Source of the DNA: Rhizaria sp. SCN 62-66
Taxonomy: Eukaryota
Direction of reading: 5' to 3'
DNA: 33,975 nucleotides
NCBI GenBank assembly: GCA_001724265.1
Contig: MEDY01000068.1
Span: 62,001-95,975, forward strand
A program made the position numbers and the translations under genes. A model generated the notes under the pieces. That model was not told the DNA's origin, ran no database searches, and saw only the letters and a program-made list of their open reading frames with translations. Positions 11,005-33,975 of the stretch are shown here, piece by piece; the stretch's first letter is position 1, and each line of letters begins with the position of its first letter.

Positions 11005-12830
11005 AGAAGTCGGGTTCGATTAATGTCAGACACTTTTGGAACTAAAGGACGCCCTTTAAGCGAGAAAATTCGTGTAGAAGAGTAAGGGGACGCTGCGTGG
11101 TTCTGTGCGGTAACGTCGAGTGAAGCGAGGATGAAGATAGAGGAATAAGAACAGGGCACACGGAAAATAAAAAGAACAATCCAAATAGACCTAATCCGTG
11201 TGAGTCTAGTATTTGCATTTAATAATCGCATTCTTTTGTTCAATGAAACACTGAACTTGGAGGAACTGAATGCGGCATCGCACATGGGCTGATCTCTCCG
11301 CGCTTTCAACAGGTTGTTATCAGGCTATAGGCAACACAACAAGAGTTGAGCGCCTGGAATATAACATATATTCAAACGCTAAACCACGCCATATTGCCAA
11401 ATTTGGACTGATGCAGGACTGAGTCCCATACAACGCTTCTATCTATGCTCAAGCGCGCGGTCGAGTCGAAGAGCGGCCAGTGGTATGTCGCTCCCCCACC
11501 AAGATGGCATTCAACACCCACACGAAGGATATCAAAAAATGGGAGATATAAATAGTATTCTACATGTCCATAATTACCACCGCAAAAAGTCTTGTTCTAC
11601 ACTGATCGACTAGTATCAAGATATTGAGCGAAAACATCTCGCCAAAGGAGCGACCAAAACGACCAAAATTTGGCAAGCTCAGCAGTGTACTGTTCAGTTT
11701 TTGGCCGCGTTGCGTCGTTCCTGCTCACAGTCACTTTTCCTCGCAAGGCTGATTCCGACCAAGGCACATACACACTAAGTGCTCGTCACAGGGGATATTA
11801 TTAAGCACCATGGTGGTGTGTTAAGTGCTTGTAATTATACGATTTCTATTTCTTTTCTTAAACTCATTGTTGTCACCTCTAACTCCTTCCCCCGCTGCAG
11901 CCGTGATACTTTTTTTGTAATATGAGATGAATAAGGAGTCGAAGATAACGCGAGCAGCGGATCGTAAAGCCCACATAAGTGTGCATACGCTATCCGTGAC
12001 GTTCGTGTGCGCACACCCAGAGCGCGTTGATTTAGTCTGTCTCGGCTGATGCCCCTGATTCAACTTGCTTCAGCAACTCACCGCTCCAAAGTGTGACTTG
12101 CGGATTCCGTCCTATGACAAGGATTACGTGTACGCTACCAGCAGCCAAGCAAATCCCTTCAAAATCAGCACAAGGATCAGCCGGAATCGTTGCCCTTCAG
12201 CAACAAACACTCGGTATTGGGCGCGCCTCCGTTATGGTGTGCGCGCGCCTGGGAAGCCACAATGTGAGGGTGTTACAGTAACCGAGTCAAAGAGGGACAG
12301 GACATCGTGCAACCGTGTCACAAAGCGATTATGTTATACCTACAAACACCATCTATCCTAATTCGAGACGGGAGTTTAGCATGCCTTCCTGGTCTTGCAC
12401 AGAGGAGGGTGGGAGCGAAAGATGGCAGTCCATGCGCTCGAGAGTGAACTGTCTCCAAGAAATCGGCGACTTAATAGCATGAACCACGATTTCCGAGCGT
12501 ATTATTTAAGATACAACTACTACTTTATGTTTTAATTCTAAAGATCATGCCTTTTTCAGCAATGACGTTCGGTTTCTCGAGCTTATATCTTCGCAAAATC
12601 GGCGACACCCATCTGGCCGCCACTTGCTGCTGTCAACCCGCCTCGTCGCGCCATGTCATCATCATCTCCCCAGCTCGACATGATCGTCAAACCTTTTTGC
12701 ATTTGTGTGCAATAGTCATTCCTCATTAATTGCATTTTGTCTTTCAAATTATATTCTCCCAATTCTCTCTCTTAGCCCGCACAGACCCACCCCAGCCAGC
12801 CTCACTCCGCAGCGAGACCCCCGCCTGCCG
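11005..12830. promoter_or_regulatory. Divergent intergenic region, presumed promoters and 5' UTRs of genes 1 and 2
   Basis: Lower GC, no convincing ORF, located between two head-to-head start codons. No specific element was identified. Confidence 0.4.
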
Positions 12831-15800: not shown

Positions 15801-17621
15801 ATTGCAAGCAATGCTGGCGAGAGTGTCGGAAGCGCCGACGCCAAGGGCGACTATGTGGAGGCTGAGTTGGAAGAGGACGACGACAATGGGCTCAGCTCTC
15901 AATACGACCGGGACGCCAATGCTAACGACGACCGTACAATCAAGAACTCGAATCCGCTTCCAAAACACACCTCAGCTCCGCTTGGGTTCAAGACGCAACA
16001 GCAACAGCAGGAGCTCCGTTCGAACGACGCCGTGGACATGCACGCTGAGGGCGTGGAACTATCACAACGATCAAGCATTCAGTGGTCACAGACGCAGACT
16101 AAGTCGCAGTTGCCGCTGACGAACGACTCGTACTAGGAAGAGTGCCTCAATATCTCCCTCACGCCTTCACAACACCACCCGCAACAGCAGCAGCAGCAGC
16201 AACTGAAGGTCAACAATAACAACACTCTCACTGACGCTGGCAAGACTAGGACTGCTGATGTTGTCGACGGCACTCGTAGCGGTCGTGCTAAGTCACGCAC
16301 TGACTTGAAAGTGAACGCGCTCGATCTAAGTGCCTCCTCAGGTCCCTGTACCTCTAATGCTGCCAACTCCGCAAGTGACCCCTTTGAGATCGACATCGAG
16401 TTGTTGCCGCTTGCAGCGCGTCTTGAGGCGCGCAAGAACTTTGCGAAGAAGCAAGCGCTTGCGCAACAGCAGCAGCAGACTGTTGAGGCGGCTACTTTAG
16501 TTGATCTTGCAAGTGCTGTTCTCGGTGACGACCACGATCGCAACGGCGAGGATTTGGTGGTCGACACCGCCCAAGGCTTAGTTCACAGCACCAAGAACAA
16601 TGCGCCTAAGAAGGCGGTCGAGCTGATGTCCAGTCCGAAGACGAGGGGCCGTAACCGGCTGCGCGCAGTGTCGCCGCCTGGCACTGTGTTCACCGCGGAT
16701 TTTGCCGCCTGCAGCCATGGCGGGGGCGATAGTGACGCGGACAGTGCCAACGAGAGCTTTGGCGCCTTGCTGGCGAAGGCGAATGCCAAGTCTAAAGCAA
16801 CTACGACCACTGCTACCGCTGCTGACTTTTCGGCTGTCACGGCTGCTAACGCCGCTGCCGCTGCTGCCACTGCTGCTGCCGCCTCTGCTGCTGTTGTTAG
16901 TACCCCCTTAGATGACGAGTCTGTCACTCCCGCTGACCGCCGCACCCGCGCACGGGCCCTCGCTAACGCGAATCATAGTCGTCTCACTCTCGCTGATGCC
17001 GACAGCACTGACGTGACACAGCTGCACCGAGACTCCCGCTCCCCCGCTGTGTTCATCGCTTCCCCTCCGAAAGGCCGCGCTTCTAAGGCTACTTCACCCG
17101 CGCCAAACGGGGGCAACGTGGACGCAACCCCGCCAACGCACGGCAAGAAAAAGGGCAATTATATCGCGAACGGGAACGCCCGCACCTCAACTACGAACGC
17201 CAACAGCCCGATCACCGCTACCGTGGTACCTGCTGCGCTGGCGTACTCTTCTCCGTTCCTCACTCGCAACCAACGGCGCAACCAGAACGCTAATAACGGC
17301 AACGATGCTGCTGTTGCAGGGGCAGCAGCAGCAGCGGCGGCAGCGGCAGCGGCTCCGGCGACGGCGACGGTGACTGAGACATCCAGCAATTTAACGCCCG
17401 TCTCTATCCGGGGTCAAGACACAGTCAGCAGTGCCGTCACGATCTCCAGCACGAGCCCCAGCGCAAGTTCGAGCACGCAGCACTCGAGTGGCAGTCGTAT
17501 GGCGCACTCTCAGCGGCAGCCGCCGCTGCAGTCTCAGCCTCGATCAAACAGCTCCCGGTCACGCCGCGCCCCCGGCCCGGTGCCTCTGCTCCTATCTCAA
17601 CAACAGCCTGAACAGCAACAT

Positions 17622-17654
<33 letters not shown>

Positions 17655-20600
17655 CAACAGCAAGTGTTGTCGCGACAAGCTCTCACGGTCACTGCCAGCA
17701 ATAACGTCAGCCATGCCTTAGTCCCGGCGTCCCCCGCCGCCACCGCCACCACAGTCACCGTCCACTCCGGCAGCGCCAGCCCCTCGAGCGCCTTCGTCAG
17801 CCTCGGCAACTCGGTCGCCGTCGTGAGCCACGTTGTGCTGCAGATGACGACGGACACGCGCAGTGCGCTGGAGGCCGCGCTCGTGAGCAGCGACGCGGAG
17901 GTGTTCAGGCGGATCTTTCTTGAGTCATTTCCGACGTTTTCGCCGGCGGCGACGCGGCAGCAGCTACACCAGCTGCAGTCGCCGCCGCAGTCGCCGCTGA
18001 AGCTTCAGCATCAGCCGCAACAGCTACAGAGTCTAGTTGTCGCCACAAATGCCGAAGCTGCAATTTCTAGCAAAAATACCGGTGATGCTGACGAGCTTTC
18101 TGATCATAGTGATTACGGCAACGAAACTGGTCGAGTGAGCTCTAAGTCAAACAAGTCCAAGTCCAAGTCCACTGCTTCCAACAAGAACCAGAGCCAGACC
18201 AATGCTCGAGCCCAAGCTATTGCGAGCACGAGGCAGACGGCTGCGCGCTCTCGCGTCGCCAGTGCTGTCGCCGCTGTTAATCCTACTGGTGGCGATGATG
18301 CAGACAGTGAAGAGCGCAGCGCCCGCGAGCGCGGCCGGAACAGGAAACGCGCTGCTCCTGACTCTAACGACGCAGCTTCTAGCTCCGCATCTGCCTCAGT
18401 CTTAGCTGCGGCTCGCGGCGCCAAGACCAGTCGCAGCAACGGCAATAACAGCTCTCGCAGCAGCAGTCGCATGGCTCGCAATAACATGTCCGCCAATTAT
18501 GACTTCGACGACAATGATGGTGAAGAGACTGAGACTGGGAGTATCACAGTCAAATCAGAGCTCATGATCCAGTCAGAGCGTGACTCGCACTCAGCTACGT
18601 ACAGCCGCTTAAGCGAACTCTCAGCTTACGGTCAGGTGGACACAGCTCCAACAACTCTCTTCTCGCTGACGGCGACAACACAGAACCATAACGCGCAGAG
18701 CAGCAGCAACAATCGATCCGATGACGACAGTGACGGTGAGAGTGCCTGTGGCGCGAGCGCGGTTAGCAGTAGCGACACACGCGCTTCCAAGAAGGCGCTA
18801 TCCGTGCAGACTGCGTCGGCGTCCTTTTTAACATCAGGTATCAATAACAATGACGTTGTGCGAAACGCCGGTGCCTTTCCTGCTGCTACTCTGCCTGTTA
18901 TGCTTCTGCTTGACGTCACTCGTGGTGCCAATGCGAACACCAGCGCCAGCACAAGTGTTAGCGCTGCAAGTGCCCGCGTTCAGTCGCGCTCGAAGACCAC
19001 CGCAGCTGCTGCGACCGCGGCTGCAGCGGCCGCGACTCTGACAGCGGCTGCTGCCGATGCCGTTGGGATCGACACAAGCTCCGCGCTCGTCGACACTGCA
19101 CGGCCGGTGCGTGCAGCGCAGTGCGGTCTCGGCTCGTGGCTCCGCGTTGTATCGGTAGCGGCAACCCACGTGAACTCGAACACTCCTACGAACAAGAAGA
19201 AGACATGTTCTGACAGGAGTAGTGTTAGCGGTGAGAATGTCGCAAGTCCGGTTTTTAGCCCGCTAAGCACTCTGGAGCTGCCTAATGACTACAACGTCAA
19301 CATTCGTGGCATTCCGTTCACTTATCTCGCGGCAGAGGCGACTGACGTATCTATGTTCTCGACTGCGGCACTCTCTGGCCGCGAAATGTCGCCCTCTCGG
19401 GCACGCAACAACAACACCAATAACGCAGGCAGTAGTCCTACCACCAACTCTCATCCGGGCGTAACTTCCGGCAGTATTAGTGTTCCTTCAGACTCGTTCC
19501 GCTTGAACGTGATCTTGACCGGCGCAGATGAGGCGTGCGAGGCCCGCGTTGCGGCGTTGATCCCGCGCATTCCAGGCGCGCGCATGCTCACAGTCATGCC
19601 GAGCTATAGTCAAGCCGCGTACCTCACGCCGACCGCGAGTTCCGTACATTTGCTCCACTGCAAGGATGAGAACTCGACTGGTGTGGTAGCAGGACTCCTA
19701 GAGCAGCAACCTCTGCTGCCTAGCTCATCTATCAACGGCAACAATAACGCGTCTAAGCTCACACTGCAACAGCGCCAGCAACATCAACAGCAGAAACAGC
19801 AGCGTGTATGTGGTGAGATTTTCGTTGTTGTTACAGGCAGCCCAGCGCCCGCGCGCACGCTGAAGTACCTGTTCACGCTTTCCCGCGGCGTCCCCGCAGT
19901 CAAAGAGGCCTGGCTCTCCGCTTGCGTCAAGGCCGGAGCGCTGCTGCCGCTGACAGCCTACGCAGTTGCCGCGCCGACAGTCACCGGCGCGAACGCGAGC
20001 TCTGGCTCTGGCTCCGGCTCTGGGGCGGCTCTTGCGACTGCGACGGCGGCGGCGGCCGCGGCTGCGGGCGCCAGTGGTGCGCGTGGCCTGGCGAAGCGGC
20101 TTGGCGGCCTACTTCCGCTGCCGCTGGCGAAACGGCCGTTTTTCGGGCTGCACGCGTATCTGCAGGGCGGGCGCGCACTGCGCCGGGACTGGGCCGTACT
20201 CGTGGCGGAGATGGGCGCCGACGTTGTCAACGGCGACCTGAGCAGCGCCGCCAGGGCCAACGTCAACAGCGATTATACCGCAACACACTTCCCGTGTAGT
20301 GTTCATCACGACAGTCATGCGCCCGTTGGCGGCTCGAGCTCTGCCAGTGCAAGTGCCAGTGCCAGGGCTCACGGTGCATGTGCTCGGTGCCAGTCTCGTG
20401 CGAGCGAGTGTAGCGCGCGTACTGCCGCTGCGGTTGAGCTACTTGTGCTCGCAACGCTTGCACTTGCGCGAGCACACTCTGTTGATCACACTGGCGTTGC
20501 TACTGGGCGGGGCGATGCGAATACGAAGCGTAAGTCGGTCCAATTCCAACAGCAGCACCAGCTGCACGAGGGGTTGTTTGGCCTGTCTATCGATGACATG

Positions 20601-21713
20601 GCCAGTGGTGACTACACCGGCGCGTTTCTCTCCGTTAGTGCCGCGCTTGCAGCCGGCGGCCCAGATGCATTCTTCTCTTGCCAACCTTCAAGCGCAAGCT
20701 ACGCCTCGAGCAGCAGTACCAGTGCGAGTGCGCGTTCGAGCTCACCGGGCGGCTCCCCACGCCGGATCGCTGCCGCGGCCGCTGCCGCTGCCTCTGGCGC
20801 CGCTGTCTCTGGTGCTGCTGCTCGGTCTACGCCCGCTGCGCATTGCTGGTGCTTTCTTGTAGCTGCATCGAACAAGAGCAAGGCCCGCGGTAACAAGAGC
20901 GGCAGCAAGAATACAAGCCGTGGTGTCAACAACAGCAACGATGACCACGAGTGCGCGTGTGAGTGTGGTTGCAGCGCGAGCGAGGACGCGATTGAGCTCG
21001 GTGATGATAAAGCTGTGACGGTGACTCTGCAGCTCAATCAATCCGCCCCGCTGGTGACCGTGAGTGGCGCCGACATTGACGCGCATCGCAACCAGGTACA
21101 TTTGCTGCACTATCTGTGCACTCTCGACAGCAAGCTCACGCCGGAGAGTGTTCTTGCGTCCACCATTCTGCCGCCCGTCAATGCGCAGCATTACTAGCTG
21201 CAATCACGCGCCACCCTCAGCCACACCGCAGTGCCCGTGCTAGTGTCCTCGGTGTTATCAGCTCCCGCCGCCTCCCTCGAGTCAGAGCACCAACTCCTGC
21301 GTATCGCATGCTCCCCGCGGTCCCCGTTCGCCCGCACACACCGCGTCTTTGTGCTGCTGTTGCCCGACGCGCCGGCGAACCGGCTGCAGTTGTCGCTGCT
21401 GCGCGCGGCGCGGGAGGCGCGTGTGGCGTGCTACAGTGTGTCGTACGCGGCTGACTGCGCTGCCGCGGGGAAAGCGCTCGACGGACGCGATTACCCCTGG
21501 ACGCCCCCGTTACAACGGCTGCAACAACAGCAGCAGCAGCAACTGCATCAGCAGATGATGCTCAGTCAAATTGTTGACGGTGCATTCGGTGCCAACGCAA
21601 CACAAAATCAAGGGCTGCCACAACAGCAGAGCCGTGCACGGAGGCCTGCTCCTGTCGACAAGGGCGAGAGTGCCGTTCTAACGCAAGCGAAAGGTAAGCG
21701 CAAACTTGCGTAA
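12831..21713 (+). CDS. 53BP1/Crb2/Rad9-like DNA-damage checkpoint mediator (~2960 aa, tandem BRCT), with in-frame TAG at codons 1102 and 2789
   Basis: ORFs 12705..16136, 16305..21197 and 21231..21713 share one frame and are separated only by TAG at 16134-16136 and 21195-21197. The gaps are stop-free. First ATG is at 12831 and the end is TAA at 21711-21713. The N-terminus is disordered with a TQ/SQ cluster, and BRCT signatures lie near the C-terminus. Confidence 0.75.
17623..17662 (+). repeat. CAG/CAA trinucleotide tract (poly-Gln) in gene 2
   Basis: A run of cagcagcag...caacagcaacagcaa. Similar poly-Q, poly-A and poly-N tracts occur throughout genes 2 and 3. Confidence 0.9.
19498..19965 (+). 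other. BRCT domain 1, with a Q/N-rich insertion
   Basis: LNVILTG...VVVTGSPAPARTLKYLFTLSRGVPAVKEAWLSACVKAGALLPLTAY matches the RTxKY...G(I/V)PxV...W...C...Y pattern of phosphopeptide-binding first BRCT repeats (53BP1, BRCA1, MDC1). Confidence 0.85.
20133..21500 (+). other. BRCT domain 2, split by a ~370-aa low-complexity insertion that contains the second TAG
   Basis: The N-part RPFFGLHAYLQGGRALRRDWAVLVAEMGADVV (~20133-20228) and the C-part RVFVLLL...SLLRAAREARVACYSVSYAADCAAAGKALDGRDYPW (~21340-21500) resemble the two ends of the 53BP1-type second BRCT. Confidence 0.65.
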
Positions 21714-23098
21714 CTGAAGCGTCCGCTTGCCATCCTTTTAGATTCATGCATGCCTTGTCTCGTGCGTCGCGCGATTTTACCTAGAAAAAACGGTTATACA
21801 GTATATCATACAGTGACGAGTCTTTATTTTTACCATGGGTTTAATGAAATGAAAGACTATCTTGCTTTATTGTTATCAACATTTTTGATAAGGCTTTTGT
21901 GAAGAGAATGGTAGTCTCGTGTATTAAAGCTGCAACGTGAAGCACGTTGACGTGGAGTTCGTATATTCACAAGCAAAGCAGAGCATGAGAACGAAATACG
22001 TCCTCTCTTAGCCTGATTGGTGACCCAATTACAGTGCAATATAAGAGTCACAGCCTTAAAGCGTGACTGTGGACGGGCTGCAAGGAGGGAGAGACTGAAT
22101 CCAGGAGGGGAAACACGCTTGCGCAACACAGCACAACATTTCACAACAGATCACAGCGTCATAATATTGCAAAACATCAAGTATCACAAGTAACAATAAA
22201 GAAAGCCGAAAGACCAAGGACAACGCAAACAACTCAACATTAAGCGAATGAGAGACATCGCACAAAGAACAGAGCGGGCGCAGAAAACAGAACAAATGAC
22301 AGAAAATATGAAAAAACCATTCACATATATGCACATGATAAAACCCAACGTACAAACACACCACAAATAACACATTGTCTAGTGGTTGGCTACTTATGTA
22401 AAGCGCAAGATTTCGATGTTTGTGTGAAATTGTGTGTGTGCAGGTTTTACAGAGATGATGATGCCGTGGTTGTGAGTGTGTGATACAACACAACACACAA
22501 ATTGCGAAATTTGTCGAATCCTTCGCGTAACACAACGCGACATGACAAAACGGCACATGAAAGACTAAAACAAAAAGACGAATGAAGCACTGAACAGAAC
22601 AATATGAAAGACAATCAGCCTCACAGGGGGCTGAATGAGTTCGACAAGAAATAAAATCTAAACTCGACTAGACTTAACTAGTTTGAGTATGCGTGAGGGG
22701 CTGGTCGGCCTGCCCACTCACACAGCGAAACACAGGACAATGTTCGTAAAACGCAATGGTGATAGCAGAAAATACAGTGATAGAACAAGAACGAAAAGCA
22801 CAGTAACTTGAGGATGAAATAAAAGTGAAACAGGATGCAGACAAGACATGATAGCACACAAAATAAGCAACTATGAATGTCGTAAGAAATAATAAAAATA
22901 ACACTGATTGCTAAATGCGAAAAACAAACAAACAAGTGCAAAAAAATATAACATCATAAAAAACAATAAAAAACAACATCTTCAAAGTTCGCATACCATG
23001 CAAGAGACGAATGCAGCCAGTTCAGAGGAGACGTCATATTCTGTGAAAACGAACCAACACTGCTCCTGCTGGTAACTGAATAGTGCTGGCTGACTGGC
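21714..23098. other. Convergent intergenic region (3' UTRs of genes 2 and 3)
   Basis: AT-rich, strongly A/C-skewed on the plus strand toward gene 3, and located between two TAA stops. Confidence 0.6.
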
Positions 23099-24105
23099 TT
23101 AGGGTGCGTCGGGCATGTTTTCCTTGGAGACCGTGAGCGCGTTAAGTTTAGCAGCCTCCCTGATAGCGACGGCGACCACGGTCATGGCCCGCCGCGCCCA
23201 GCTGATACGGGGCAGAATGAACTCGTATGGACTCGCTTCGACCTCCGATAGGTCGCTGTCACTGTGACCCTCTTCCTCTTCCTCTTCCTCTTCGCCCGTA
23301 TTGCCACTGCCGCTGCCGCTGCTGTTGCGGTTAGTGGCGTTTTTGGACTTCGATGCGCGGGGGATAGGGCCGCGCACCGGGGAAGGCGATGTAAGTGGGA
23401 TGGTACTTAGACTGATCATCAGCACGCTCAGCAGCGACTCGGTGGCCGAGGACGACGACTGAGGGGTATTTACACCGCCGTCAGCAACGACTCTCTGGCT
23501 CGCAGACCAGGTGAGTAGCTCGCGCGCAGCAGCAGCGAATCTGTACTTAGACACCAACAAAGAAGTACTTACACTGTCGGCTGCTCCGGAGCTGGACCCG
23601 GCTAAGGGGGTACTTACATGCGCGTTAGTGAAGCCAGAGCAGTCGCAGCCATCATCTCTAGCACGGCCATGAGACTTGCTCTTGCTCTTGCTCTTTCTCT
23701 TCTCCTTCGACGCCTCCTCCGCGTTGTCGTCGCCGTCGCTGCAATCGTCATCGTCGTCGTCACTGAGCAACGCATTGTAGCATTTGCTCACGGTCTCAAC
23801 CTGCCGCCGGCGCCGCTCGCGCCGCTGCAGCGACTGCGCACTGGCCTCAGGCGCCACAGACTCGAACGCCTCGTCGAACATAAACAGCAGCTCGCACGTG
23901 GCGACGTACAGCTCCTCCTCGTCCTTGACCTTGGACTTGCTACTCGCGCGGCCGTTGAGCTGCGAGTTGCTCGCCAGAGTGGCGATGACCTTGGCGACGT
24001 CGAGGGCGAGCGCTACGACTGCGATGCGGCCCGCGGCGGGCGGCAGCTGGCGCAGCAGGGACTCGACCACGGGGCGCAGCTTCTTGGCCAGTACTTGCAG
24101 CACGC
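23099..24105 (-). CDS. Gene 3, exon 5 (last exon, TAA stop)
   Basis: Acceptor tgtttgcag|GC gives a phase-1 join (TPG-VLQVLAKK) in the frame of ORF 23099..24121. Ends at DAP-TAA. Confidence 0.8.
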
Positions 24106-24275
24106 CTGCAAACAGCAACAAATGAACAAAAGAATGTCACACAAATTTGAACTAATAAAGTTTAACCGGATATAGATGAACATTAAATGCAAACAAAAGT
24201 ATGATGACAAAAATTCAAGTTAAAAAGAAGTGATATATGCTGTCAAACCCTTTGCTTTAGTTATAATGAGCGTAC
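24106..24275 (-). other. Spliceosomal intron 4 (170 nt)
   Basis: GTACGC...TTTGCAG, AT-rich, preserves frame. Confidence 0.8.
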
Positions 24276-27200
24276 CTGGCGTAAGGGTGCCGCGCTGCGG
24301 CGAGTCCCCGAGCATGCGCCGCAGCACATACCGTGCCGCCGTGTGCGCAATCGCGACGCGCTGCTGCGCCAAAGCGCGTGCAGCGAGGCGCAGCACTGGG
24401 ACGCAGAGCACGCGCTTGACTGCCTCAGAGCTATCGGCGGCAGAGGCAGATGTGGCGGCGGACTTAGACTTGGTGGTGTAAGCCAGACCTGAGAGCGCGA
24501 GGTACTTACCCCAGTCTAAGGGGGGGCTTCGACCCTGCGTGCTGCTCTCTGCCTTCTTGAAGTGCGCGATCACAGTCGCTTCTAAGCGTAAGAGCGCGGC
24601 GACCGCGCTGTCGAGGTTGCTCATTCGCACGCAGTAGCTCGCCAGCGTCGCCGGCACGGCCGCGGTGTGCGCGGCCACGTCGGCGAGCACGGCCGCCGGA
24701 TGACTGCGGGCCGAGTGAGTGCGGGCCGGCGTGACGGACACGCACAAGCCGCACACACACCCAGTGCCATCACTCTTACCAGCGCCAGCGCCAGCGCCAG
24801 CGCCAGTGCCAGTGCCCGGAGTGTTCAGAGTGTTCAGACTCACGCAGGGCAGCGATAGCGCGGGCACTGGCAGAGCTGGGGAGTCGCTGTGCGCACTGCA
24901 AGACGCCACCAGCGTCGCGCCGTACCGCAGCGCGAGCGACGCGGCTTGACTTAGAACACATCGGAGCAGCGGGGTGGCCGCGAGCACGCGGCCCGTCGCG
25001 GATACGCTGGGCGCGGTGGCTGGCGCGATGAGGCGGGCCGCGGCAGCGGCAGCGGCAGCGGCGGCGCCGGCAACGGCCGCGAAGTCGCCGCCACTGCTGA
25101 TGTCGCCGTGGAGGCTCTCAGCGCTTCCATCGGAGTCGTAGGTGGACGGCGGGGGTACAAGAAACGGCGACACCAGAGTGGTCAGCGCGGTTTCCAGCGC
25201 AGGCGCGGACGCCGAATACGCAGCGGCAGCGGCGGCAGGGGAAGCTTCAGCAGTGGCGTTGGCGTTGTTGGCCTTTTCGGGACTGCCGCGGTTCGAGACC
25301 CGGTGCCAGTTGTCGCTGGCAACAGCTGCAGCGACGGAATCCGCGGTTGCAGCGGCAACCGCGCGGGCAAACGCCGCGACACGGTCACGGTCGCGGGCGC
25401 TGGCGGGCGCAGGCATGGTCGCAGCCGGAGCCGCAGTCGCAGGGACGCCCATGGCATCAACATTGACAATGTTATCAGCGTCGGTGTCGGCGTCAGCGGG
25501 GGTGATTGTGGTGGTGATGTTGACATTTAGATCGGTGTAAGTGGGTCCCGTGAGTGTAAGGGGCGGCGGGCGGTTGACTGGGGAACCGATGGTCTTCTTT
25601 GCGGTCGCCGAGTGTGAGGGCTGCGGGGTACTTAGACTCGGCTCGGAGGACGGGTTGACCGTGAGCCTGGTGCAGAAGGGTGAGAGACCACTTACACCTT
25701 GAACAACACCGCTGCCGTTGGCCGTGATCTGGCCCTCTTCGAGGATCTCGAGGCTGCCCTTGACGAGACCCTCGCCTTCTCCTTCCCCTTCACTGTCGCT
25801 GATGCTGCTGTTGTTGCTATTGCCGTTGCTCTTGCTGTGGGTCGCAGCAGCAGCAGCAGCAGCAGCAGCAGCACCGTTATTGCGGCCGAGCTTATTCGGA
25901 CTGAGGCCCTCACGCTCAGAACCGTCAGCAGGATCGTCATCATCGTCGTCGTCGGTGTTATCAGCACGATTGCTGCGGTTGTTGTGAACGCGATCATCGT
26001 CTTCTTCGTCGTCGTCGTAATCGTCGCTATTGTTCTGATTCACGACAAGATCGTTCTCATCGTCGCCGTTGCTGCTGCGCACGAGATTACCGCCGCCGTT
26101 GTCGTCGTCGTTGTCGTCCGGGTTGCTGCTGGGCTGCCAGTCGAGCCCCGACGCCACCGTGTCGTACGCCGGCGGCGGCAGCGCCCACGCCAGCGCCAGG
26201 CCCTCCTCGTCCGCCTCGGCAACGACGCCGACGCCGCCCGCCCCCGTAACGCCCGCTATGGCGCTGTGAGCCCCGAGGCCGAGGCTGTGTGAGCGGCTGT
26301 GGTTGGCGGAGTGGAAAGCGGTGAAGCTGACGCCGTTGTTGTTCTGAGAGAGGAGGAGGGGGGTCGTGATGCCGTCGTTGTTTTTGCTGCCGCAGGCAAC
26401 GGGACTGTCCAAGTAATCCTGCTGCTGCTGTTGCTGTTGCTGCTGCTGAATCAGCTGTTGTTGTTGTTGTGCGTATCCGGGTAAAGGAGTCGCAGGACTG
26501 CTAGAATGCGCACTTACATTCGCACTTCCACCGTTGTTAGAGGAGACGACGGTGGAGAAGGCCGGAGGTGGCTCCAGCTTAAGCGGTGTGTTAGATGAGT
26601 CAAGCTGCTGCATCTGGAGGGGCTTCACGGGGGACGCCTTCGAGGGGGTACTTAGACCGCCGTCTAAGGGGGTCGCTCTCGCAGTCGCAGCGCCAGCAGT
26701 GGCAGTGGCAGCGCCAGCAGAGGCGGCGGTGACGCCAGAGGTGGCGGAGGAAACGGCGGCAGCGGCAGGGTTTACATCAGTCAACGCAGCGGGGCGCTTA
26801 ACCTTGCGGATGATCTTCCGCTTAACTACGCTCTTCTTGACGACGCTGCTCTCAAGCTGCTTGTTGGCGTTTGTGCTGTTATCGTTGTTATCCTCGTCTT
26901 CATCCTCCTCTGGGACGGATGCTGCGACTACGCCGGAGCCTGCCGCCGCCGCGACGACGTTGACGCTCACACTCGGCCTCGCGCTCGCGGTCGCGCTTGT
27001 ACTGGCAATATTAGCATTGCTGGCGTTGGTTGCGAGGGTTTGGCTCGACGCGACGCCCTCGATGGGCCCCTGCGCCGCCGCGGCGGCCGCCTCCTTCTCC
27101 TTATAGTCCAGCAGCGCCGCCGCGCGCGCGGCCCGGCGGGCGTGGCGCGCCGCACGGTCCTTCTCCTCTTCCTCCTTAGTCTTCGGCGCCCGGTCTCTAT

Positions 27201-28027
27201 CACGGGGATTATCAAGGGGCCCGGCGCGGCTGCTGTCTTTGTCCTTGTCTTTGCGGTCACGGTCACGGTCAAGGCCTTTATCGCGGTGGTGGCTGCGGCT
27301 TACCGAGTCACGGTGGCCTTGTCCCGGCGAATGCGACTGAGACTGTTGCGACGAAGTACGTTGCAGCTGCTGTTGTTGCTGTTGCTGGTAATGCAAGCGC
27401 TTGAGAGCTGTGTACGTAGCTTGGTCGGCGACGCAGTACTTAGACTGGGCCGAAAACAAAGGCCGCTCGCCGATGCCCAGCGTGGAAGGTACACCACCAC
27501 TAGGAGCATTGAGACTAGAACTCCCACCTGACAACGAACTACTGTTATTGCTGTTGCTGTTTGAGCCAGTCGAGCCAGGAGCGCTCGCACCTCCAGCAGC
27601 TCCAGTCCCAGTCGCAGTCGACGGAACTGCCCCGTTGCTGTTGTTGCTGAGGGGAATCGCACTGGCCACGGAGGCAGCGGCGCTCTCCAGCGCGGCCCGG
27701 AGCACCCGAGCGTTCCCGGCGTTGGCGAACACCGTCGCCGGCGGAGTCGAAAAAGAATGCACGGTCGGCGCGGGGATCGAATCTGGGTACGGCGGGGGTG
27801 CGTCTGTGTAGAGCGCGCCTGCCGGCGCCCGCAGGGCCGTGTCCGTGGCCGTGACCGCGAGGGTCTGCTCCAGTAAATCCCGCTCGGGGTCGATGGCGCC
27901 CAGTGCGGGGAAGGTGGCCACGGCGCAGCGGGAGAGGGATTTGGCGGCCGCGGTCTCCAGGGCTGTGGCGGCCTCGCGGAGGGCGGTGGCGGTTGCCACG
28001 GCGCGCGCCGCGTCGGCCGCTTGATGC
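24276..28027 (-). CDS. Gene 3, exon 4 (low-complexity region followed by a helical C-terminal region)
   Basis: Frame of ORF 24220..28053. Acceptor ctgacattcgcag|G, donor CCAG|gtacgc. Confidence 0.85.
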
Positions 28028-28282
28028 CTGCGAATGTCAGTCGCGGAAAACAATAAAAGTGAGGTTTACGAGAGTATATGCATGCGCGTTAAATAAAAGC
28101 CAGTGTCTGATATAAAATACGCATAACTATGATTAAATACTACACTTTTCTGGAGTAAAAATCACATTCTTAGATAAATATGTCTCTTAAGAAAAGCCAG
28201 CAAAGAGCGACCACGTGTTCTTTGACATAAAATTTCGGTCAAAGCTATGTTGAAGAACGTATTATTGGTCAGTAAAACGTAC
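28028..28282 (-). other. Spliceosomal intron 3 (255 nt)
   Basis: GTACGT...CTGACATTCGCAG with a branch-point-like CTGAC next to the AG. AT-rich, phase-2 join LAR-HQAAD. Confidence 0.8.
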
Positions 28283-28707
28283 CGTGCAAGAAGGTTGACA
28301 ACGGCGGCCGCATACGTGGCCTCCGCCTTGCGCGCCGTCTCGGCCGACGCCACGAGCTTCAAGTACGTGTTGTTGAGCTGTTTGAACAGCGGCAGCACGC
28401 GTTTGGGGTCCAGTCGCACGAGACTTGGGTCGAGCCAGAGGTAACCGCGCACGAGGGGCGGCGCTTGCTCCATCGCCTGCGCCGCGGCGGCCGCGGCCGA
28501 GCTGACGAACTGCGCCGGCGTCAGCGTCGGCATGACGCCACCCGCCCCCGGCTGCTGCTGCAGCTGTTGTTGGCCGAGGGATAAGGGGGAGTCTAAGTAC
28601 TGGTTGCTATTAAGGTCTAAGTGGCCGGTTAAGGGAGTGCCGGGGGAGGAGTCGTCTAAGTACTTGTTGTTCGCGTCTAAGGGGGTCGGCCATTGGAACA
28701 CACCACC
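28283..28707 (-). CDS. Gene 3, exon 3
   Basis: Frame of ORF 28162..28701. Acceptor tttttag|GGT, donor CACG|gtacgt. Confidence 0.8.
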
Positions 28708-28864
28708 CTAAAAAAAGTAGTAAGATATGTCCACCAGATGTTAGTATCAAGACATGAATTTTGCATAAATAACAAATATCACAACAATACATAGTATATA
28801 ATAGTTTTAAGTGCAATGAATAGTATTAACATCGCCAAGCGTTTAGTGTAAAAAGATCGCGTAC
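28708..28864 (-). other. Spliceosomal intron 2 (157 nt)
   Basis: GTACGC...TTTTTAG, AT-rich, phase-0 join GSK-GGVFQW. Confidence 0.8.
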
Positions 28865-29345
28865 CTTTGAGCCATTGCGCACGTGGGGCGTCGTGACGCG
28901 GCTGCCCGGTGACTCGGCGACACCAAACGCGGCCCCCATGCCACTGTTAGCCGCACTGACGGACACCGACGTCGATCGCCCGCCCTTGCCAGAGGTGCCG
29001 TCGGCGCCGCTCGCCTGCTGCTGCTGCAGTTGCTGCTGCTGGAACTGTTGCTGGACCGGATCTAAGTACAAAGTGTGTTGTTGCGCGGCCATCGTCGCCG
29101 GTGAGGGCATGATAACGGCGTCCTGACTGGCTGCCATCGCCGCTGCCGCCGAGGCAGACTCGGCTGTGACGTTTAAGTACCCCCTTAAAAGCCGTCCGGC
29201 GAGCGCAGCGGCCTGGTCGTCGCCTTTCCCGCTGTATTCGAGCTCCAGCGCAGCCTGGACTTCGCGCGGGTCGCGCACAAACACAGTGTCTAGGGACACG
29301 TCGGCCAGGGTAACAGGCGCAGTGCGCACGTTCAGACCGTACGGA
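28865..29345 (-). CDS. Gene 3, exon 2
   Basis: Frame of ORF 28826..29329. Acceptor tttttgactcag|T, donor AAG|gtacgc. Confidence 0.8.
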
Positions 29346-29541
29346 CTGAGTCAAAAAGAGGGAAGCAATAAAAAAAAAAAAGAATCGGGACATTCACGTA
29401 AGTCAAGATATAGGCACAATCAAGACGAATCTCAAAAATACAATAAAAATAGCTATATTACAACAAATAAAATACAAATAATAATTGTTATTTCAATTAA
29501 TAACTACATCAGAGAGATATGTTTGTTTTAGTGAAACCTAC
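29346..29541 (-). other. Spliceosomal intron 1 (196 nt)
   Basis: GTAGGT...GACTCAG, very AT-rich, phase-2 join EAR-PYGLNVRT. Confidence 0.8.
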
Positions 29542-30686
29542 CGAGCCTCGGAGCGACGCGAGGTGAACTTGAGCACATAGTGCTGAAACTGTGTCATCGC
29601 CTCATGCCGCGCCATGATCGCGTCCCTAAGCTCCTTAGTAACGCCCGCATTGGCTTCGGTCGCCAGGGTCGTGGCGCGGTCCAGCGTGGCCGTGACGGAC
29701 TTAAGCGACGTGGCCAGCGCAGCAGTGGAGGACGCGCGCGCGTCCAAGGCAGCTACGACGCCGTGCACGCCGGCCGCAAGCGTCGCGCCCTCACCAGCGC
29801 GGCGGGCCGTGGCCGCAGTGGCAAACAGCGCGGCCGTGGGCTCGATGGCCTTGGCGAGCGCGCGCGAGTGCGAGTCCTCGAGGCTGGAGAGCTTGGCGAA
29901 GAGCGCTGAGAGCTGAGGCAGGGTATTGCGGCTGTCGCGGGTCTTGGCGAAGACGACTGCGGGATCGGGGAAAGAGCGGCGGACGCACTCGGCGCGGAGC
30001 AGGTCGCGCCGCAAGAGGCTCTGGTAGCGGGTTTTCTCCTGCGAAGTCGCAGTGCCAGAACTAGAACTACTTGAGGAGTTTGAGGAGTTCGAGTGGTTCG
30101 CGTTGCTTGCGGAGAGGACGGAGGCTGCCTTGGCCGCGAGGCGGTCGACGCGGGCGATCGTCTCGAGAGTGCGCTCCTCGGCGAACTCAAACGCGGTGAC
30201 CGCGGCCGTCGTTGCGGGCGATAACGCAGAGCCACCAGAGCCAGAGCCGCCGCTGCCGCCAGAGCCGGAGCCGGAGCCAGAGCCGGAGCCAGAGCCAGAG
30301 CCGGAGCCGTGTCCGCCGCTGCCTTGCTGCTGCTGCTGCTGCTGCTGCTGCGAGTCGCCGCCGAAGTGCGGGGTAAGGGAACTAGAGCCAGACGTAGCGC
30401 TGCCGTTGTTGCCCGAGAGTGAACGACTACTACTGCTGCTGTTGGTGTTATTGTTTGAGTTTGAGTTTGGACCGACTGCTGGGAAACGCTGTCGCTTCGA
30501 CGAGTACTCAAGTCGCTTGGTGTCCTTGGCGACAGTGCGCACAAGACATGCGTCAAAGAAATCCGCGGAGGGAATCAGCGGCGCTGGACTCATCGCAGAC
30601 GGGGATGACGAGAGCGCGGGCGATGCTGAGGGGGCCGCCAATGCAGACGCGGCGCCAGCCGCCGTCGCGGGGGGGCCCTGAGACAT
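29542..30686 (-). CDS. Gene 3, exon 1: large low-complexity protein (spliced CDS 6810 nt, 2269 aa), putative F-BAR-like N-terminus
   Basis: ATG at 30686 (MSQGPPATAAG). The five exons sum to 6810 nt in one frame. LSALFAKLSSLEDSHSRALAKA...EGATLAAGVHGVVAALDARASSTAALATSL resembles FCH/F-BAR helices. The domain call is tentative. Confidence 0.75.
30233..30350 (-). repeat. Hexamer tract (Gly-Ser repeat) next to a CAG poly-Gln tract in gene 3 exon 1
   Basis: On the plus strand, (R)GAGCC repeats are followed by (TGC)n. They translate on the minus strand as QQQQQQQQQGSGGHGSGSGSGSGSGSGSG. Confidence 0.85.
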
Positions 30687-30715
30687 TTCGGGCAATACTG
30701 AGTGGAGAACTTGTT

Positions 30716-30812
30716 CTGCAGAGAAAATAATTGCATATTTAAAAACAAAACTGTAGTAAGAAATCCGAATATCTTGGTTGTATTGCGCAAACACGATGCA
30801 CAGATCGCGTAC
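30716..30812 (-). other. Putative 5'-UTR intron of gene 3 (97 nt)
   Basis: The donor GTACGCGATCT is identical over 11 nt to the intron 2 donor. The body is T-rich and ends ttttctctgcag. The upstream exon has an in-frame TAA, so it would be non-coding. Confidence 0.55.
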
Positions 30813-31686
30813 TTCGTCTCCAAATCTCCCGTTCTTAATTCGTTTGAGGGGGAAGGAGAGGCGCCTGTCAACTGCGCGCCTCCTGTCCCACAGTCGTCAG
30901 AGCCTCCTTTTGGCTTCGTATCATCGTCGATATCTCTATGTAATCAGGACCCATGTTAGCAAAACTAAATTTGATGATACTTCAGTAGGTTGCATGTATG
31001 GCTACGCAGTTTTAACCCAAAATGTCAACATCTTGGGACATAAAACGCTTTTCAAAACGTCTGGATCTTTGATGATTGCGAACTTGCCTAAGAGAGCGAG
31101 ACAGACAGCCCGACCGGAGACAAAAACACTACAAAAGCCTGTATAAAGTCAGGCGCACTTTGTAATAGACTTGGTATCGCGGATAATAAATCTAACCATT
31201 GTATTCAACTTCACACCACAGCCGGGTAAAGCACGACAGTTGACATGAACTGCCGGCAGTTACTCTTGCGTTGAGGCCGAGTCCTCATACAATAGTACAT
31301 TCAACACTATATAATCAATCATCATGGAGTAAGAAAGAAAAAATAACAACGCGGGCAGGCAACAATGCAACAACACAACACTAATGTCGAGTAACAATTA
31401 AATATCTCCCCTAAATCAACAACGCACCACTCGAAAAACAAAACAAGGAAAACAAGGAAAAGCGTGATAAGCTTCGTCCGTACGTGTTAACTCACATACG
31501 GACTCAAACTTCGCTGACGTGAGCTTTTTCATGTAGTGTGTGTCTTTTGTCGCTTGCTGTTTGTCGCTGTGTTTTTTTCTTCAATGATATGCACTCAACG
31601 TAAAAACAAAAACAAAAACATACTCATCTCACCTACACACACGTCCCAATCTAAAACAGACCCTCTCAACGCTGTGACGTGTGTCC

Positions 31687-32625
31687 TTACTCGGTCTTCT
31701 TACTTGCAGCAACGCCGGTACCCTTGTTACCCGTGCTCTTATAATCAGCGACATAGTCGGTCGGGTCGCGGCCCTCATCCGGGTTGGCATCAGGCTTGCC
31801 GGCAAGCTGGTTCTTGAGCTTATCGTACACAGACTTGCCGGGCTGGTAGGCCGTGGGGTGCATGAAGCTGCCGCCGAGACGGTCCCAGAGCGTGAAGTAC
31901 TGTCCATAGTTGTAGTTGAAGTAGATGTGGTGGTCGGTGTGGTGCGCAGAGCCGTTAATAAAGGGCTGGAGCAGCGCAGGCACCTTGTAATTCTCATCGT
32001 GGATCGACGTGGACCAAATATTGACGGCGACGAAGAGGAACAGGTAGAGCCAGCGGTGCATAGGGAAGAGAAAGACGTAGATGTGGTAGGGTGCGGACTG
32101 GGAGAAGCCGTCGACGGGGTGGAACGCGTGGGACGCGAAGGGCGTGCAGATGATCCAGCGGTGGTGGGGCTTATGGAAGCGGCCGTAGAAGATGGGCAGG
32201 TGGAGCCAGCGGTGGATCCAGTAGATGCACATGTCGGTGAAAAAGAGGAAAAGCGGGACGGTGAGAATGAGGAACCAGATCCCCCACGGGTGATCGTCGA
32301 TGTTGTCGTAGAGCCGGGAGTAGCCGTGGACCTCGAGCACGAACAGGCACGCCGTCGGCAGCGCCATGTAAGGGATGGACCAGAGAGCGTACTTGATCTC
32401 GAGCCATTCCTGGTTCGGGATGAAGCGTTTATGCTGCCGCAGGGACTTGTCGAAGAGGAAATAGTGCGACAGAGCACCGGGGATGAGGTAGAGCAGTGAG
32501 CCACCGAAGCAGATGATGGCGATGAAGCTCACGTACTGACGGAGCACGTTGTCCACGGGCACAGAGGCCGGGTAGACGAACGGAGTAAAAAAGTACTCGT
32601 CCGCAAGGTCCAGGATAATGTCCAT
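31687..32625 (-). CDS. SC5D: Sterol C5(6)-desaturase / lathosterol oxidase (fatty acid hydroxylase superfamily), 312 aa
   Basis: Starts MDIILDLADEYFFTPFVYP. Has His boxes HRWLH, HKPHH and HHTDHH, plus the motifs TPFASHAFHPVDG and NYGQYFTLWDRLGGS typical of SC5D/ERG3. Intronless CDS, TAA stop. Confidence 0.97.
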   Translation of the reverse strand: MDIILDLADEYFFTPFVYPASVPVDNVLRQYVSFIAIICFGGSLLYLIPGALSHYFLFDKSLRQHKRFIPNQEWLEIKYALWSIPYMALPTACLFVLEVHGYSRLYDNIDDHPWGIWFLILTVPLFLFFTDMCIYWIHRWLHLPIFYGRFHKPHHRWIICTPFASHAFHPVDGFSQSAPYHIYVFLFPMHRWLYLFLFVAVNIWSTSIHDENYKVPALLQPFINGSAHHTDHHIYFNYNYGQYFTLWDRLGGSFMHPTAYQPGKSVYDKLKNQLAGKPDANPDEGRDPTDYVADYKSTGNKGTGVAASKKTE

Positions 32626-33975
32626 CGCTAAACCTCTGTTAGGGAAGTCAGGAAGGCGGAAAGGCAAACGCAGAAAAATACGGCGGACGGACGACAAGGC
32701 GCAAGTGAGTCACAAAAAGTGATATGCAGCGACGCAAATGACATTAGTTGAAATTAAATAAGACAGAAAATAAAGCAAGGTTTAGAGAGGGTGAGTGTAT
32801 ATCAGTTATATAAATATATACGCAGGAATTGTGGAGATAAACGTGGTTTCGTTGTTTGCGGCCGGCGGTTGCGGCTCAAATGCACGTGCTTGCGGAAGCG
32901 TCGGCTTTCGTCGGTAGAAGGTATATAACCAGAGTAACAACGCAGTTAAGAGAAGAAAACCGGATGTGGGGATTCCCGGCAATGCGCTCTATCTTGCACG
33001 TAAAATTCATAGTGAGAGGGACGCAGGGGCCAGCGCGGGAGAGACGGGGAGGGTGCGGCGTCTGGACAGGCAAACGAGTCTCGAGTGAGCGGGGTGCTGA
33101 GCCCAAGCGCGCACGCGTCAGAAACAGTGACTAAGGCCCGGAATAAAATAACATCCAAGTACAGACGCTAAAAAATCATGGCAAGGCAAAAGAAATCGCG
33201 CTGGCGATCGCATTTTGCCACAGCTCAAGTTCAAAACTCTGCCCGTCGACTGTGCCTGAGAGCCGTCGCTCTTGTGCCTGGCAAGGCAGCAGCAGGACCG
33301 ATAAAATAGTCTGGCTGCTAGATTAAACCAATAGTGGTGGCAGGTTGGGGGTCGAGGCCCTCCGATCGGGCAATGTCCAAAGTCATGATTTTATCGCCAA
33401 CAGAGCTATAATCACATTTGCGACGTTTAATTTGTCATGTGTTTTATAATTGTTAATTATAGCTCTTACAAGCTCGTTCTAACTGATGATCTCACCCTCA
33501 CTGGTACTGGCCCGTTTAGAGTCACAGAGCCGTCGCATGACAGCGACCGCCCCTGCCTCTGTGGGCGTTGAAAACGCGTCCCTGAAGGTGGATTTGTGTT
33601 CGCCTCATGGATGAACTGTGCGTTTAGTCTGGGCATTGCTATCTAGCTCGGGTTGAGTTTGTATGATGGCTCGTCTCGACCACCAGCCGCTTCTCCCACT
33701 TGACGTTGGGCAACACGACTTTCGTGCCCGCTGACGCGCCGGGCAACACAGAAAAGATCGGCTACGTCAAGTGCTCCAACTTGGGCGGCTTCAACGTGAC
33801 GATTCCTACCGTGGGTCCTTTCAAGCAGCTCCTTGTGACGCGCAGTATGAGCATGTATGTGGTGTCAGCATTTTTTGTCCGCCAAGCATGCCCGCCGCCA
33901 AGGCACGTTGTGGTGGGGCAGCTCTGAAGAAGCGGCGTCCGTTGTTTTATCCGTCCGTGGAGCCCCGGCAGAACG

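Follow-up and report, generated by a model that had tools for sequence, protein, structure and literature searches.

A two-armed DNA motif written into the exons of a probable rhizarian: putative docking sites of a chromatin factor acting regionally

Motif copies in gene 3 and its neighbourhood

The window (the whole stretch of DNA analysed, 33,975 nt) contains gene 3, a minus-strand gene (23099..30686) for a 2,270-aa low-complexity protein, with five exons (30686-29542, 29345-28865, 28707-28283, 28027-24276 and 24105-23099) separated by GT-AG introns. This model is the sole open GT-AG combination; there may be one more 5' exon, past a candidate intron at about 30718-30811, and no Pfam family was found in the largest exon. 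A sequence-only reading had reported seven exact copies of a 10-mer within this gene, and all seven are confirmed, five as GTACTTAGAC (23403, 23543, 25628, 26648 and 27436) and two as GTCTAAGTAC (28591 and 28654), with none in the rest of the window; the expectation for the window under its own third-order Markov model is 0.035. The ten variants listed by that reading are likewise all present (the one given as 24461 begins at 24460), and the five-exon minus-strand model reproduces the peptide readings SKY, LST, VSTPLA, PLD, YLD and LRGYLN.

On the plus strand, a two-arm site with a 10-bp spacer (ATGTAAG ... GTACTTAGAC; 23389..23412) takes in the exact copy at 23403, and two direct right-arm half-sites 22 bp apart (23543..23574; the exact copy at 23543 and GTACTTACAC at 23565) are read as SKY and VST. 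These are followed, still on the plus strand, by a near-full 20-mer with three mismatches (23600..23619; VSTPLA), by the weak half-site GGACTTAGAC (24460..24469; SKS), and by a partial right arm leading into a second near-full 20-mer at 24514, also with three mismatches (24502..24533; PPLDWGKY). A patch of four half-sites in both orientations (25535..25697; at 25535, 25554, the exact 25628, and 25688) and the minus-strand half-site ATGTAAGTGC (26510..26519; VSA) precede a plus-strand head-to-head pair (26643..26673), read as TPLDGGLSTP, in which a 15-bp right part (with the exact copy at 26648) is separated by a 4-bp gap from a 12-bp left part (26662). Beyond it, again on the plus strand, lie the exact 10-mer at 27436..27445 (SKY), four direct half-sites (28591..28686; 28591, 28615, 28654 and 28675, read as YLD, HLD, YLD and PLD) and the half-site ATCTAAGTAC (29060..29069; YLD), and finally a minus-strand near-full 20-mer with three mismatches (29171..29190; LRGYLN).

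The motif, first described from gene 3, extends beyond it, since a near-full 20-mer with four mismatches (16894..16913, minus strand; VSTPLD) and the half-site ATCTAAGTGC (16324..16333, plus strand) both lie in a neighbouring 3,009-codon ORF. Apart from these two sites that ORF is motif-poor. The earlier statement that the motif is missing from introns holds for 28 of the 29 loose arm matches between 23 and 30.8 kb, which are exonic, and fails for one weak match at 28172, which is intronic. The assembled 20-mer consensus is supported by 19 exact copies in the genome, though none is exact in the window.

Abundance and anatomy of a DNA-level motif

In the 35-Mb genome the exact 20-mer occurs 19 times (0 for the reversed control), the 10-mer 439 times (20) and the half-site RTSTAAGKRS 3,883 times (925). 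Loss of enrichment under a shuffle preserving amino acids and codon usage had been named beforehand as the outcome that would refute the motif; the enrichment survived it. Three contigs hold 257 half-sites in their long ORFs, where 100 shuffles that preserve amino acids and per-ORF codon usage gave a mean of 13.7 and a maximum of 23, an excess of about 19-fold in the contigs tested (those analysed locally make up about 0.85 Mb of the 35 Mb and were mostly picked as motif-rich). Since the codon-shuffled null is exceeded, a peptide cause is removed. Encoded peptides stand above expectation (LSTP, 49 vs 8.2; TPLD, 29 vs 3.4; EVKP, 15 vs 0.5), and the motif uses codons that are the rarest for Leu and Val (CTA 4.8%, TTA 5.0%, GTA 6.8%).

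Both strands of the long ORFs carry half-sites (147 vs 110), and five of the six strand-frame classes are occupied, the sixth being the one that yields TAA. In the frame that yields TAG there are 0 of 77 G-variant sites and 30 of 88 C-variant sites. The host, an uncultured amoeba-like protist and probably a rhizarian, probably reads TAG as Gln; a suppressor tRNA scan returned a single tRNA-Gly across 60 loci, and no cercozoan UAG code is described in the freely available papers searched.

Of the DNA- or RNA-level cause originally proposed, the DNA level is supported, and the RNA level is not, given the use of both strands and arms that do not covary. Among 36 full sites the arms are C–G paired in 18 and C–C mismatched in 15 (Fisher p=1), and, given this lack of covariation, a hairpin is unnecessary. 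The compensatory change of both arms once seen at 29171 restores pairing at one position only, and it represents no general trend. A signal in RNA or protein (a hairpin, a tiny intron, a small-RNA target or an STPLD peptide motif) could draw on the GT...AG that spans 18 nt of the full site and on the 28 of 40 near-full copies in ORFs that share one frame, [LV]S[TP][PSH]L, yet the codon-shuffle excess speaks against a peptide cause and we regard such a signal as highly improbable. No Rfam match was found, and a polyA-library contig spanning 23337-23762 continues, with 0 differences, through one near-full site and five half-sites (at low depth, and with DNA carry-over possible).

The full site, RTSTAAG-GGGGTA-CTTASAY, has a 7-6-7 layout in which inverted arms flank an asymmetric 6-bp spacer. 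With the core fixed, position 18 is G in 75, C in 60, A in 4 and T in 1 of 140 sites, and its mirror, position 3, is C in 91, G in 20, A in 2 and T in 1 of 114; the two positions behave similarly, and therefore the same transversion is accepted in either arm. The spacing TAAG-N6-CTTA is found 58 times (control, 6) and N5 16 times (control, 2), other lengths giving 3-10 against 2-7. The spacer is GGGGTA in 29 of 38 two-arm sites, a set that includes loci fetched for the exact 20-mer, and perfect palindromes account for 0 of the 38. Among the 15 perfect copies retrieved, similarity stops sharply after 20 bp, and the GC shift around sites is below 0.03. Sites cluster within less than 125 bp, with no convincing period on the nucleosome scale. 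Close direct pairs (n=78) are not local duplications, because their flanks are 30-32% identical and their halves identical in 10%. With two similar arms, a preferred spacer, an asymmetric core and sharp edges, the motif resembles a site recognised by a protein, and of the options first raised the binding site of a dimeric protein fits best, the putative binder being dimeric or pseudo-dimeric.

If breaks were repaired by inserting sequence templated on a telomere or a small RNA, partial copies in both orientations would be accounted for, and the right arm does resemble the reverse complement of a 5' splice site. However, variation is position-specific, two-fold symmetric and unlike decay, a template cannot yield near-equal C and G together with the same tolerance in the mirror arm, and each of the 19 perfect copies stands alone and internally, without common sequence past 20 bp. 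The telomere repeat was not found (four tandem TTAGGG units gave 0 matches), and none of the 19 perfect copies lies in a tandem or terminal array. The templated or telomerase-like option finds no support, and we consider it extremely unlikely.

That the sites are scars left by a mobile element, miniature copies of one, or targets of a recombinase is very improbable as well. Recombinase sites are built of inverted arms around an asymmetric core, and the layout of tyrosine-recombinase targets (inverted arms, asymmetric spacer of 6-8 bp) is shared by this motif, with its 6-bp core; in addition, many of the regions that carry sites are inserted when compared with homologues (PRMT5- and UGT-like by reading only). 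Nevertheless, the mobile-element option first raised is not supported, considering that target duplications are absent, flanks unshared and several frames used: duplications of 3-10 bp flank 0 of 46 near-full copies (2 bp in 3, against 3.6 expected), and among 480 sites no flank family was found except neighbouring motif copies and triplet repeats. Moreover, a 20-base insertion would shift the frame, yet the ORFs are open, and most sites are half-sites whose variation is symmetric and not of the decay type. The tyrosine recombinase family PF00589 gave 0 matches in an exon-by-exon search of the genome, which may be incomplete (14 of 14 control genomes gave matches). Among the 15 joints listed of four runs (97 more besides), in contigs that drop rare forms, no rearranged forms at sites appeared.

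Exon bias, regional clustering and occurrence elsewhere

Site density is 1.44 per kb in exons and 0.14 per kb in AT-rich non-coding DNA, a roughly tenfold difference; for AT-rich introns and spacers the count is 6 over 44 kb in rich regions and 0 over 40 kb in intermediate ones. Such a preference is odd for a selected site, because introns would be cost-free. Sites lie mid-exon and fall to 0.3-0.65 of expectation within 400 bp of AT-rich segments, and promoter-proximal DNA shows no enrichment. Across long low-complexity ORFs density spans a 100-fold range, from 0.03 per kb (contig C1) to 2.97 per kb (contig C61), with the densities of adjacent genes correlated (rho 0.51, p=5e-4, n=44). Contig C1 stands at background (5 vs 6 for the control in 200 kb), with 3 sites in 86 kb of equally long low-complexity exons. 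In the assembly of 714 unordered contigs, the 10-mer is missing from 35 of 60 contigs where a Poisson estimate, blind to contig size, gives 14.6. Density follows low complexity (rho 0.43) and, inversely, codon adaptation (rho -0.22); GC3 is no predictor (rho -0.15, p=0.18). There is no gene-class bias, motif-rich and motif-poor genes alike being ordinary housekeeping genes. Short conserved genes within rich contigs are mostly without sites, and in Pfam stretches sites are not significantly rarer (4 observed, 6.6 expected).

These patterns may be set against gene-level exonic regulation, in which an ordinary transcription or nucleosome-organising factor would act on the host genes as an enhancer or anti-silencer, or by blocking cryptic transcription within very long exons, with the regional pattern secondary. 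The mid-exon location, the depletion near AT-rich segments, the clustering within 125 bp and the mostly site-free short conserved genes of rich contigs would all suit it, and exonic enhancers are known from animals (PMC13216554). Nonetheless, the long low-complexity exons of contig C1 are nearly site-free, rich genes have no common function and promoter-proximal DNA is not enriched, and we think this explanation improbable.

The main rival to docking sites is recombination-driven accumulation, in which better-matching alleles of a recognised motif win gene conversion or repair with no benefit to the cell, e.g. via break suppression in cis, and purifying selection confines the copies to tolerant coding positions; bacterial uptake sequences offer a parallel. 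It predicts the site anatomy equally well, together with thousands of weak sites in low-complexity coding sequence; frame use tracks the avoidance of rare codons, as is reported of uptake sequences (PMC2817400); gene-class bias is absent, and regional variation could follow recombination. It has difficulty with unconstrained AT-rich introns and spacers that are nearly empty and with a density independent of GC3, and we judge it rather unlikely. We know of no eukaryotic case of drive creating a motif; if it were true here, a eukaryotic mechanism would be creating its own binding sites.

A second exon motif, GAAGTTAAGCCGC, is present 360 times (0 in the control) and co-varies with the 20-mer motif by gene (rho 0.51); neither it nor the genome-wide regional clustering featured in the sequence-only reading. 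The two are rarely adjacent, 1 of 91 lying within 30 bp of the first motif where 10 were expected.

Outside the genome, in scans from which records closest to it may be missing, viral contigs gave 0 matches and prokaryote genomes 1, under a rough chance estimate of about 9. In metagenomes 8 distinct loci were found, of which 4 are identical to the source genome and 3 others come from the same assembly. One metagenome locus (L050), bacterial or prophage-like and matching neither the source genome nor phage, was taken as chance. A second strain (run X4, DNA) shows about 10 differences in 20 kb, and the low-cover runs X8 and X9 are not diverged; a 3-nt gap at 26657 in two run X4 contigs probably reflects other motif pairs mapped to the locus. 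A search with the Thg1 exon returned distant, mostly fungal homologues only, and in PDB alignments the motif-bearing residues of the PRMT5-like and UGT-like proteins were unaligned.

Putative docking sites and known systems

We somewhat favour the view, from sequence evidence, that the motif copies are selected sites at which a putative regional chromatin factor docks. It would be recognised by a sequence-specific DNA-binding protein peculiar to this lineage and having two similar reading heads, either a dimer or a pseudo-symmetric monomer, and a single arm with part of the core may also serve, within patches of less than about 125 bp. Sites would arise singly, through base substitutions at places where changes to the encoded protein are tolerated, namely the long insertions of low complexity by which proteins of this organism are enlarged; translation would filter them, frames yielding TAA, TAG or AGA being avoided, and the survivors would be kept by selection. 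Most likely the factor would recruit chromatin or chromosome-structure machinery to whole domains, since it is the chromosome region, not the class of gene, that governs density, and a second factor reading GAAGTTAAGCCGC may act jointly. Its action would resemble that of nematode rex sites or bacterial parS/matS, yet inside exons.

More tentatively, and with some doubt, we suggest a chromosome-scale function (centromere-type, pairing, dosage or replication domain) set by long motifs that lie almost entirely within coding exons, that selection or recombination drive accumulates and that rewrite the proteome, low-complexity insertions being their landing space. If true, eukaryotes would have their own equivalent of the uptake sequences or matS of bacteria, one absent from the freely available papers searched, where neither the motif strings nor such a motif in protists is described. 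In animals it is debated whether factor binding shapes coding sequence, and the signal there is weak, against the excess of about 19-fold in the contigs tested here. With one motif about 3,000 copies in excess and a second present at least 360 times, this is a second code overprinted on eukaryotic exons, plainly visible in the sequence, that alters amino acids and imposes rare codons. The regional pattern points towards a hitherto unrecognised means of marking chromosome domains in Rhizaria, a supergroup for which few genomes exist. The organism is known from metagenomes only, which restricts direct tests at present, and the motif is a ready bait for finding its binding protein.

Among known systems, parS and matS are palindromic sites confined to domains and tolerated within genes, and REST/RE1 joins two half-sites over canonical and longer non-canonical spacers; the protist motif has no sequence similarity to any of them. 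Rickettsia palindromic elements are palindromic repeats in the ORFs of unrelated genes too, being in-frame insertions of about 150 bp that each encode a conserved peptide (PMC10969869). In contrast, the protist motif is 10-20 bp long, uses five frames and has no sign of unit insertion, nor of the discrete shared unit of 100-150 bp of a Rickettsia element or MITE. Exonic enhancers, coding exons bearing factor-binding information, are defined by many-factor binding maps (PMC13216554), whereas here one or two long motifs dominate, can be seen in the sequence by itself and rewrite amino acids.

Uptake sequences (USS/DUS) of Pasteurellaceae and Neisseria number hundreds to thousands of copies in ORFs, inflate peptides, follow preferred codons by frame and poorly track gene function (PMC2817400). 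Like them, the protist motif is over-represented within ORFs across several frames; unlike them, it occurs in a eukaryote not known to have an uptake system, as a two-armed 20-bp site with a tenfold exon preference and a 100-fold regional range. HIP1 of cyanobacteria is an over-represented ORF palindrome that lacks a peptide or RNA role and is proposed to act in chromosome structure, an 8-bp perfect palindrome linked to methyltransferases, with conservation shown (PMC5861425); the protist motif is longer, degenerate, core-asymmetric and patchy. The genome-wide, also intergenic spread of the uptake and HIP1 type is not seen, contig C1 being at background and non-coding DNA tenfold poorer. Finally, the dosage-compensation motifs MEX, MEX II and Motif C of C. 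elegans, which recruit a chromosome-structure complex, are several distinct motifs of 9-26 bp that reach 50-fold enrichment in part of the genome and lie in clusters, within about 50 bp of one another (PMC9477397). The protist motif is likewise clustered and strongly enriched in part of the genome, but with thousands of sites, nearly all of them coding.

Occurrence and coding context of the motif

The seven exact 10-mers that the sequence-only reading had located are all present, with no further copy anywhere in the window (0.035 expected under a Markov model), as are its ten variants, and the peptides it had read through the motif were recovered from a five-exon minus-strand model of gene 3 (window 23099..30686) with GT-AG introns. 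Its impression that introns lack the motif was nearly right: of 29 loose arm matches, 28 fall in exons, the other being a weak intronic match (28172). Contig C68, whose end forms the window, belongs to an assembly of 34.9 Mb and 714 contigs, across which the exact 10-mer occurs 439 times (20 for the control, the reversed motif), a 13-mer subset 126 times (control 0), the half-site RTSTAAGKRS 3,883 times (control 925) and the two-arm pattern in 479 rows (control 14), many of these sites being counted on both strands. The 20-mer assembled by the same reading from separate pieces is a real sequence, with 19 exact genome copies on 17 contigs (control 0). Outside the source organism, the motif was not above chance in the viral, prokaryote and metagenome collections scanned; we treat as chance an exact 20-mer, directly followed by another CTTAGAC, at a metagenome locus (L050:132-161) whose contig is bacterial or prophage-like and is not in the source assembly.

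Long ORFs hold 257 of the 275 half-sites on contigs C68 and C25 and part of C61, and several of the other 18 fall in short exons. Permuting synonymous codons within each ORF gave a mean of 13.7 and a maximum of 23 in place of these 257, so the enrichment outlasts the codon shuffle that had been proposed as its decisive check. Five of the six strand-frame classes are occupied, and the remaining one would read TAA; the rarest Leu and Val codons are those used by the motif, and frames yielding TAG or AGA are shunned. Translation therefore filters permitted site positions, as PMC2817400 describes for bacterial uptake sequences. The peptides LSTP, TPLD, STPL and VSTP are raised five- to eightfold. 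Sense-strand copies of a GTAAGT-bearing variant number 85, and may be tolerated because donors of the window's introns favour GTACG over GTAAG; in gene 3, three of four donors read GTACG (examples on the minus strand are introns 24106-24275, 28028-28282 and 28708-28864).

Four sequencing runs, as contigs, were compared with window 12700-32699. One polyA-library contig spans 23337-23762 with zero differences, over five half-sites and one near-full site; the eight listed pieces of this run are all exonic, and none of 15 listed joints (97 others exist) marks an intron or the motif. The reads thus give a weak argument against the motif being spliced out, edited or eliminated from the DNA.

Site anatomy and further motifs

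Each site consists of GGGGTA flanked by 7-bp arms, RTSTAAG and CTTASAY, with a preferred spacer of 6 bases (58 versus 6 in the control), a minor one of 5 (16 versus 2) and spacers of 10-12 likewise present in the genome listing. Variation depends on position. Transitions are expected to dominate under neutral decay; in sites with a fixed core, the counts are G75/C60/A4/T1 at position 18 and C91/G20/A2/T1 at its mirror, position 3. The compensatory arm change noted earlier at one copy is no trend, since the arms vary independently (18 C-G, 15 C-C, 2 G-G, 1 G-C; p=1) and base pairing between them is therefore not maintained. Such anatomy suggests a recognition site in double-stranded DNA that a pair of similar protein domains would contact. 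Closely spaced sites are not duplicates of one another. The suggested Rickettsia-type palindromic element, and RPE/MITE membership as set out in PMC10969869, were rejected: similarity among copies ends at 20 bp, the near-full copies examined carry no target duplications, and the sites compared form no flank families. A profile search of the assembly, which may be incomplete, found no tyrosine recombinase. What little probability our other readings leave is shared among mobile-element, templated, and RNA-level or peptide-level causes.

A second exon motif, GAAGTTAAGCCGC, came out of an unbiased search for 8-mers more frequent in 85 long ORFs than in their codon-shuffled versions. It is multi-frame, lies on both strands, encodes EVKP peptides and has 360 copies genome-wide (control 0; for example at locus L020:2227-2239). 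It co-varies with the first motif by gene (rho 0.51) and is found within 30 bp of it in one of 91 cases versus 10 expected, in part because the two cannot overlap. A third multi-frame motif in the sampled contigs, GCTCACRGTCAC (CTCACRGTCA), is weaker and partly repeat-like, occurs on motif-poor C1 too, and may partly reflect a His-Gly/His-Ser repeat effect; CACGGTCA is enriched in the window as well. The phenomenon is a small vocabulary of motifs rather than a single word.

Host, genetic code and inflated genes

Runs holding at least half of the window's words are bioreactor and wastewater metagenomes and one unlabelled run. The host is probably a rhizarian, judging from its proteins: its sterol desaturase groups with a Guttulinopsis protein (support 96/95) in a clade that also includes a Colpodella-labelled sequence, and three of five named HSP90 matches are Mataza, Leptophrys and Lapot, which are Rhizaria. 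The host's nuclear code probably assigns the rare codon TAG to Gln (in-frame counts: TAG 41, CAG 5,060, CAA 1,774). Gln makes up 14% of the neighbours of 34 internal TAGs (background 3.8%), 24-28% of those of CAG/CAA and 4-6% of those of Leu codons; several in-frame TAGs stand within Gln runs, and in a ubiquitin-like domain one occupies a Gln position. In-frame TAG codons interrupt long ORFs at window 16134-16136 and 21195-21197 and at loci L042, L028, L035 and L025. The rhizarian variant described in PMC5304391 reads UAG as Leu.

Ubiquitin at loci L023, L024 and L026 is unusually divergent, with an MSMQIF start, and several copies there are partial or rearranged. At L025 a duplicated domain of no known family is fused to a ubiquitin copy carrying one TAG; its C-terminal stretch presumably resembles a phage tail-fibre chaperone, and the locus may belong to a mobile element. 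At L042, L029, L051, L066, L071 and L082, conserved housekeeping proteins (PDS5, Thg1, Raptor, VPS13 and XPG according to Pfam, and a PRMT5-like one by reading) are inflated by low-complexity insertions of great length, each within one exon of 3-24 kb. Some 9,260 codons form one open frame (TAG as sense; window 1-11019, minus strand, extending to C68:45219) that is not low-complexity and contains one half-site; comparable frames of 10,000-11,000 codons occur on C1 and C42. The low-complexity ORF at window 12684-21713 (3,009 codons) has no Pfam match, and its C-terminal blocks appear BRCT-like by eye only.

Regional density and a possible role

In rich regions, long ORFs carry 1.44 sites per kb and AT-rich non-coding DNA 0.14, both classes being proxies rather than annotation. 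Sites are depleted within 400 bp of AT-rich segments and clustered at distances under 125 bp. Density rises with low-complexity coding sequence (rho 0.43), which alone is insufficient to account for it: low-complexity long ORFs carry 0.03 per kb on C1, 0.28 on C42, 0.92 on C48, 0.95 on C68, 1.47 on C25 and 2.97 on C61, contigs other than C1 and C68 having been picked for containing motif matches. Density is also correlated between adjacent genes, and C42 grades between poor and rich parts, making a mixed bin less likely. Rich and poor genes are similar in kind (20 rich ORFs, with PDS5, Foie-gras, RPAP1, NAD kinase, kinases and a helicase, versus 19 poor ORFs, with Raptor, VPS13, XPG, TLDc and TBC, by Pfam), and gene-level exonic regulation via the motif seems to us improbable.

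Somewhat in preference, we suggest that the motif may be a selected docking site for a putative factor working at the level of chromosome domains. Against docking count the near-absence from introns, which fits none of the models, and the absence of any clear depletion of sites within Pfam stretches (4 versus 6.6 expected). A recombination-based drive, by which copies would accumulate, we hold to be unlikely. Docking, drive and exonic regulation would all require a putative motif-reading protein, and that one exists is very probable. That long exon-borne DNA motifs specify a chromosome-scale function in this lineage is a tentative proposal.

We found no description of the motif strings or of the phenomenon in open-licence main texts. 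Among known systems, uptake sequences (PMC2817400) and HIP1 (PMC5861425) are like the present motif in their effect on ORFs, rex motifs (PMC9477397) share its regional, multi-motif layout, and exonic enhancers (PMC13216554) are the nearest eukaryotic kind.
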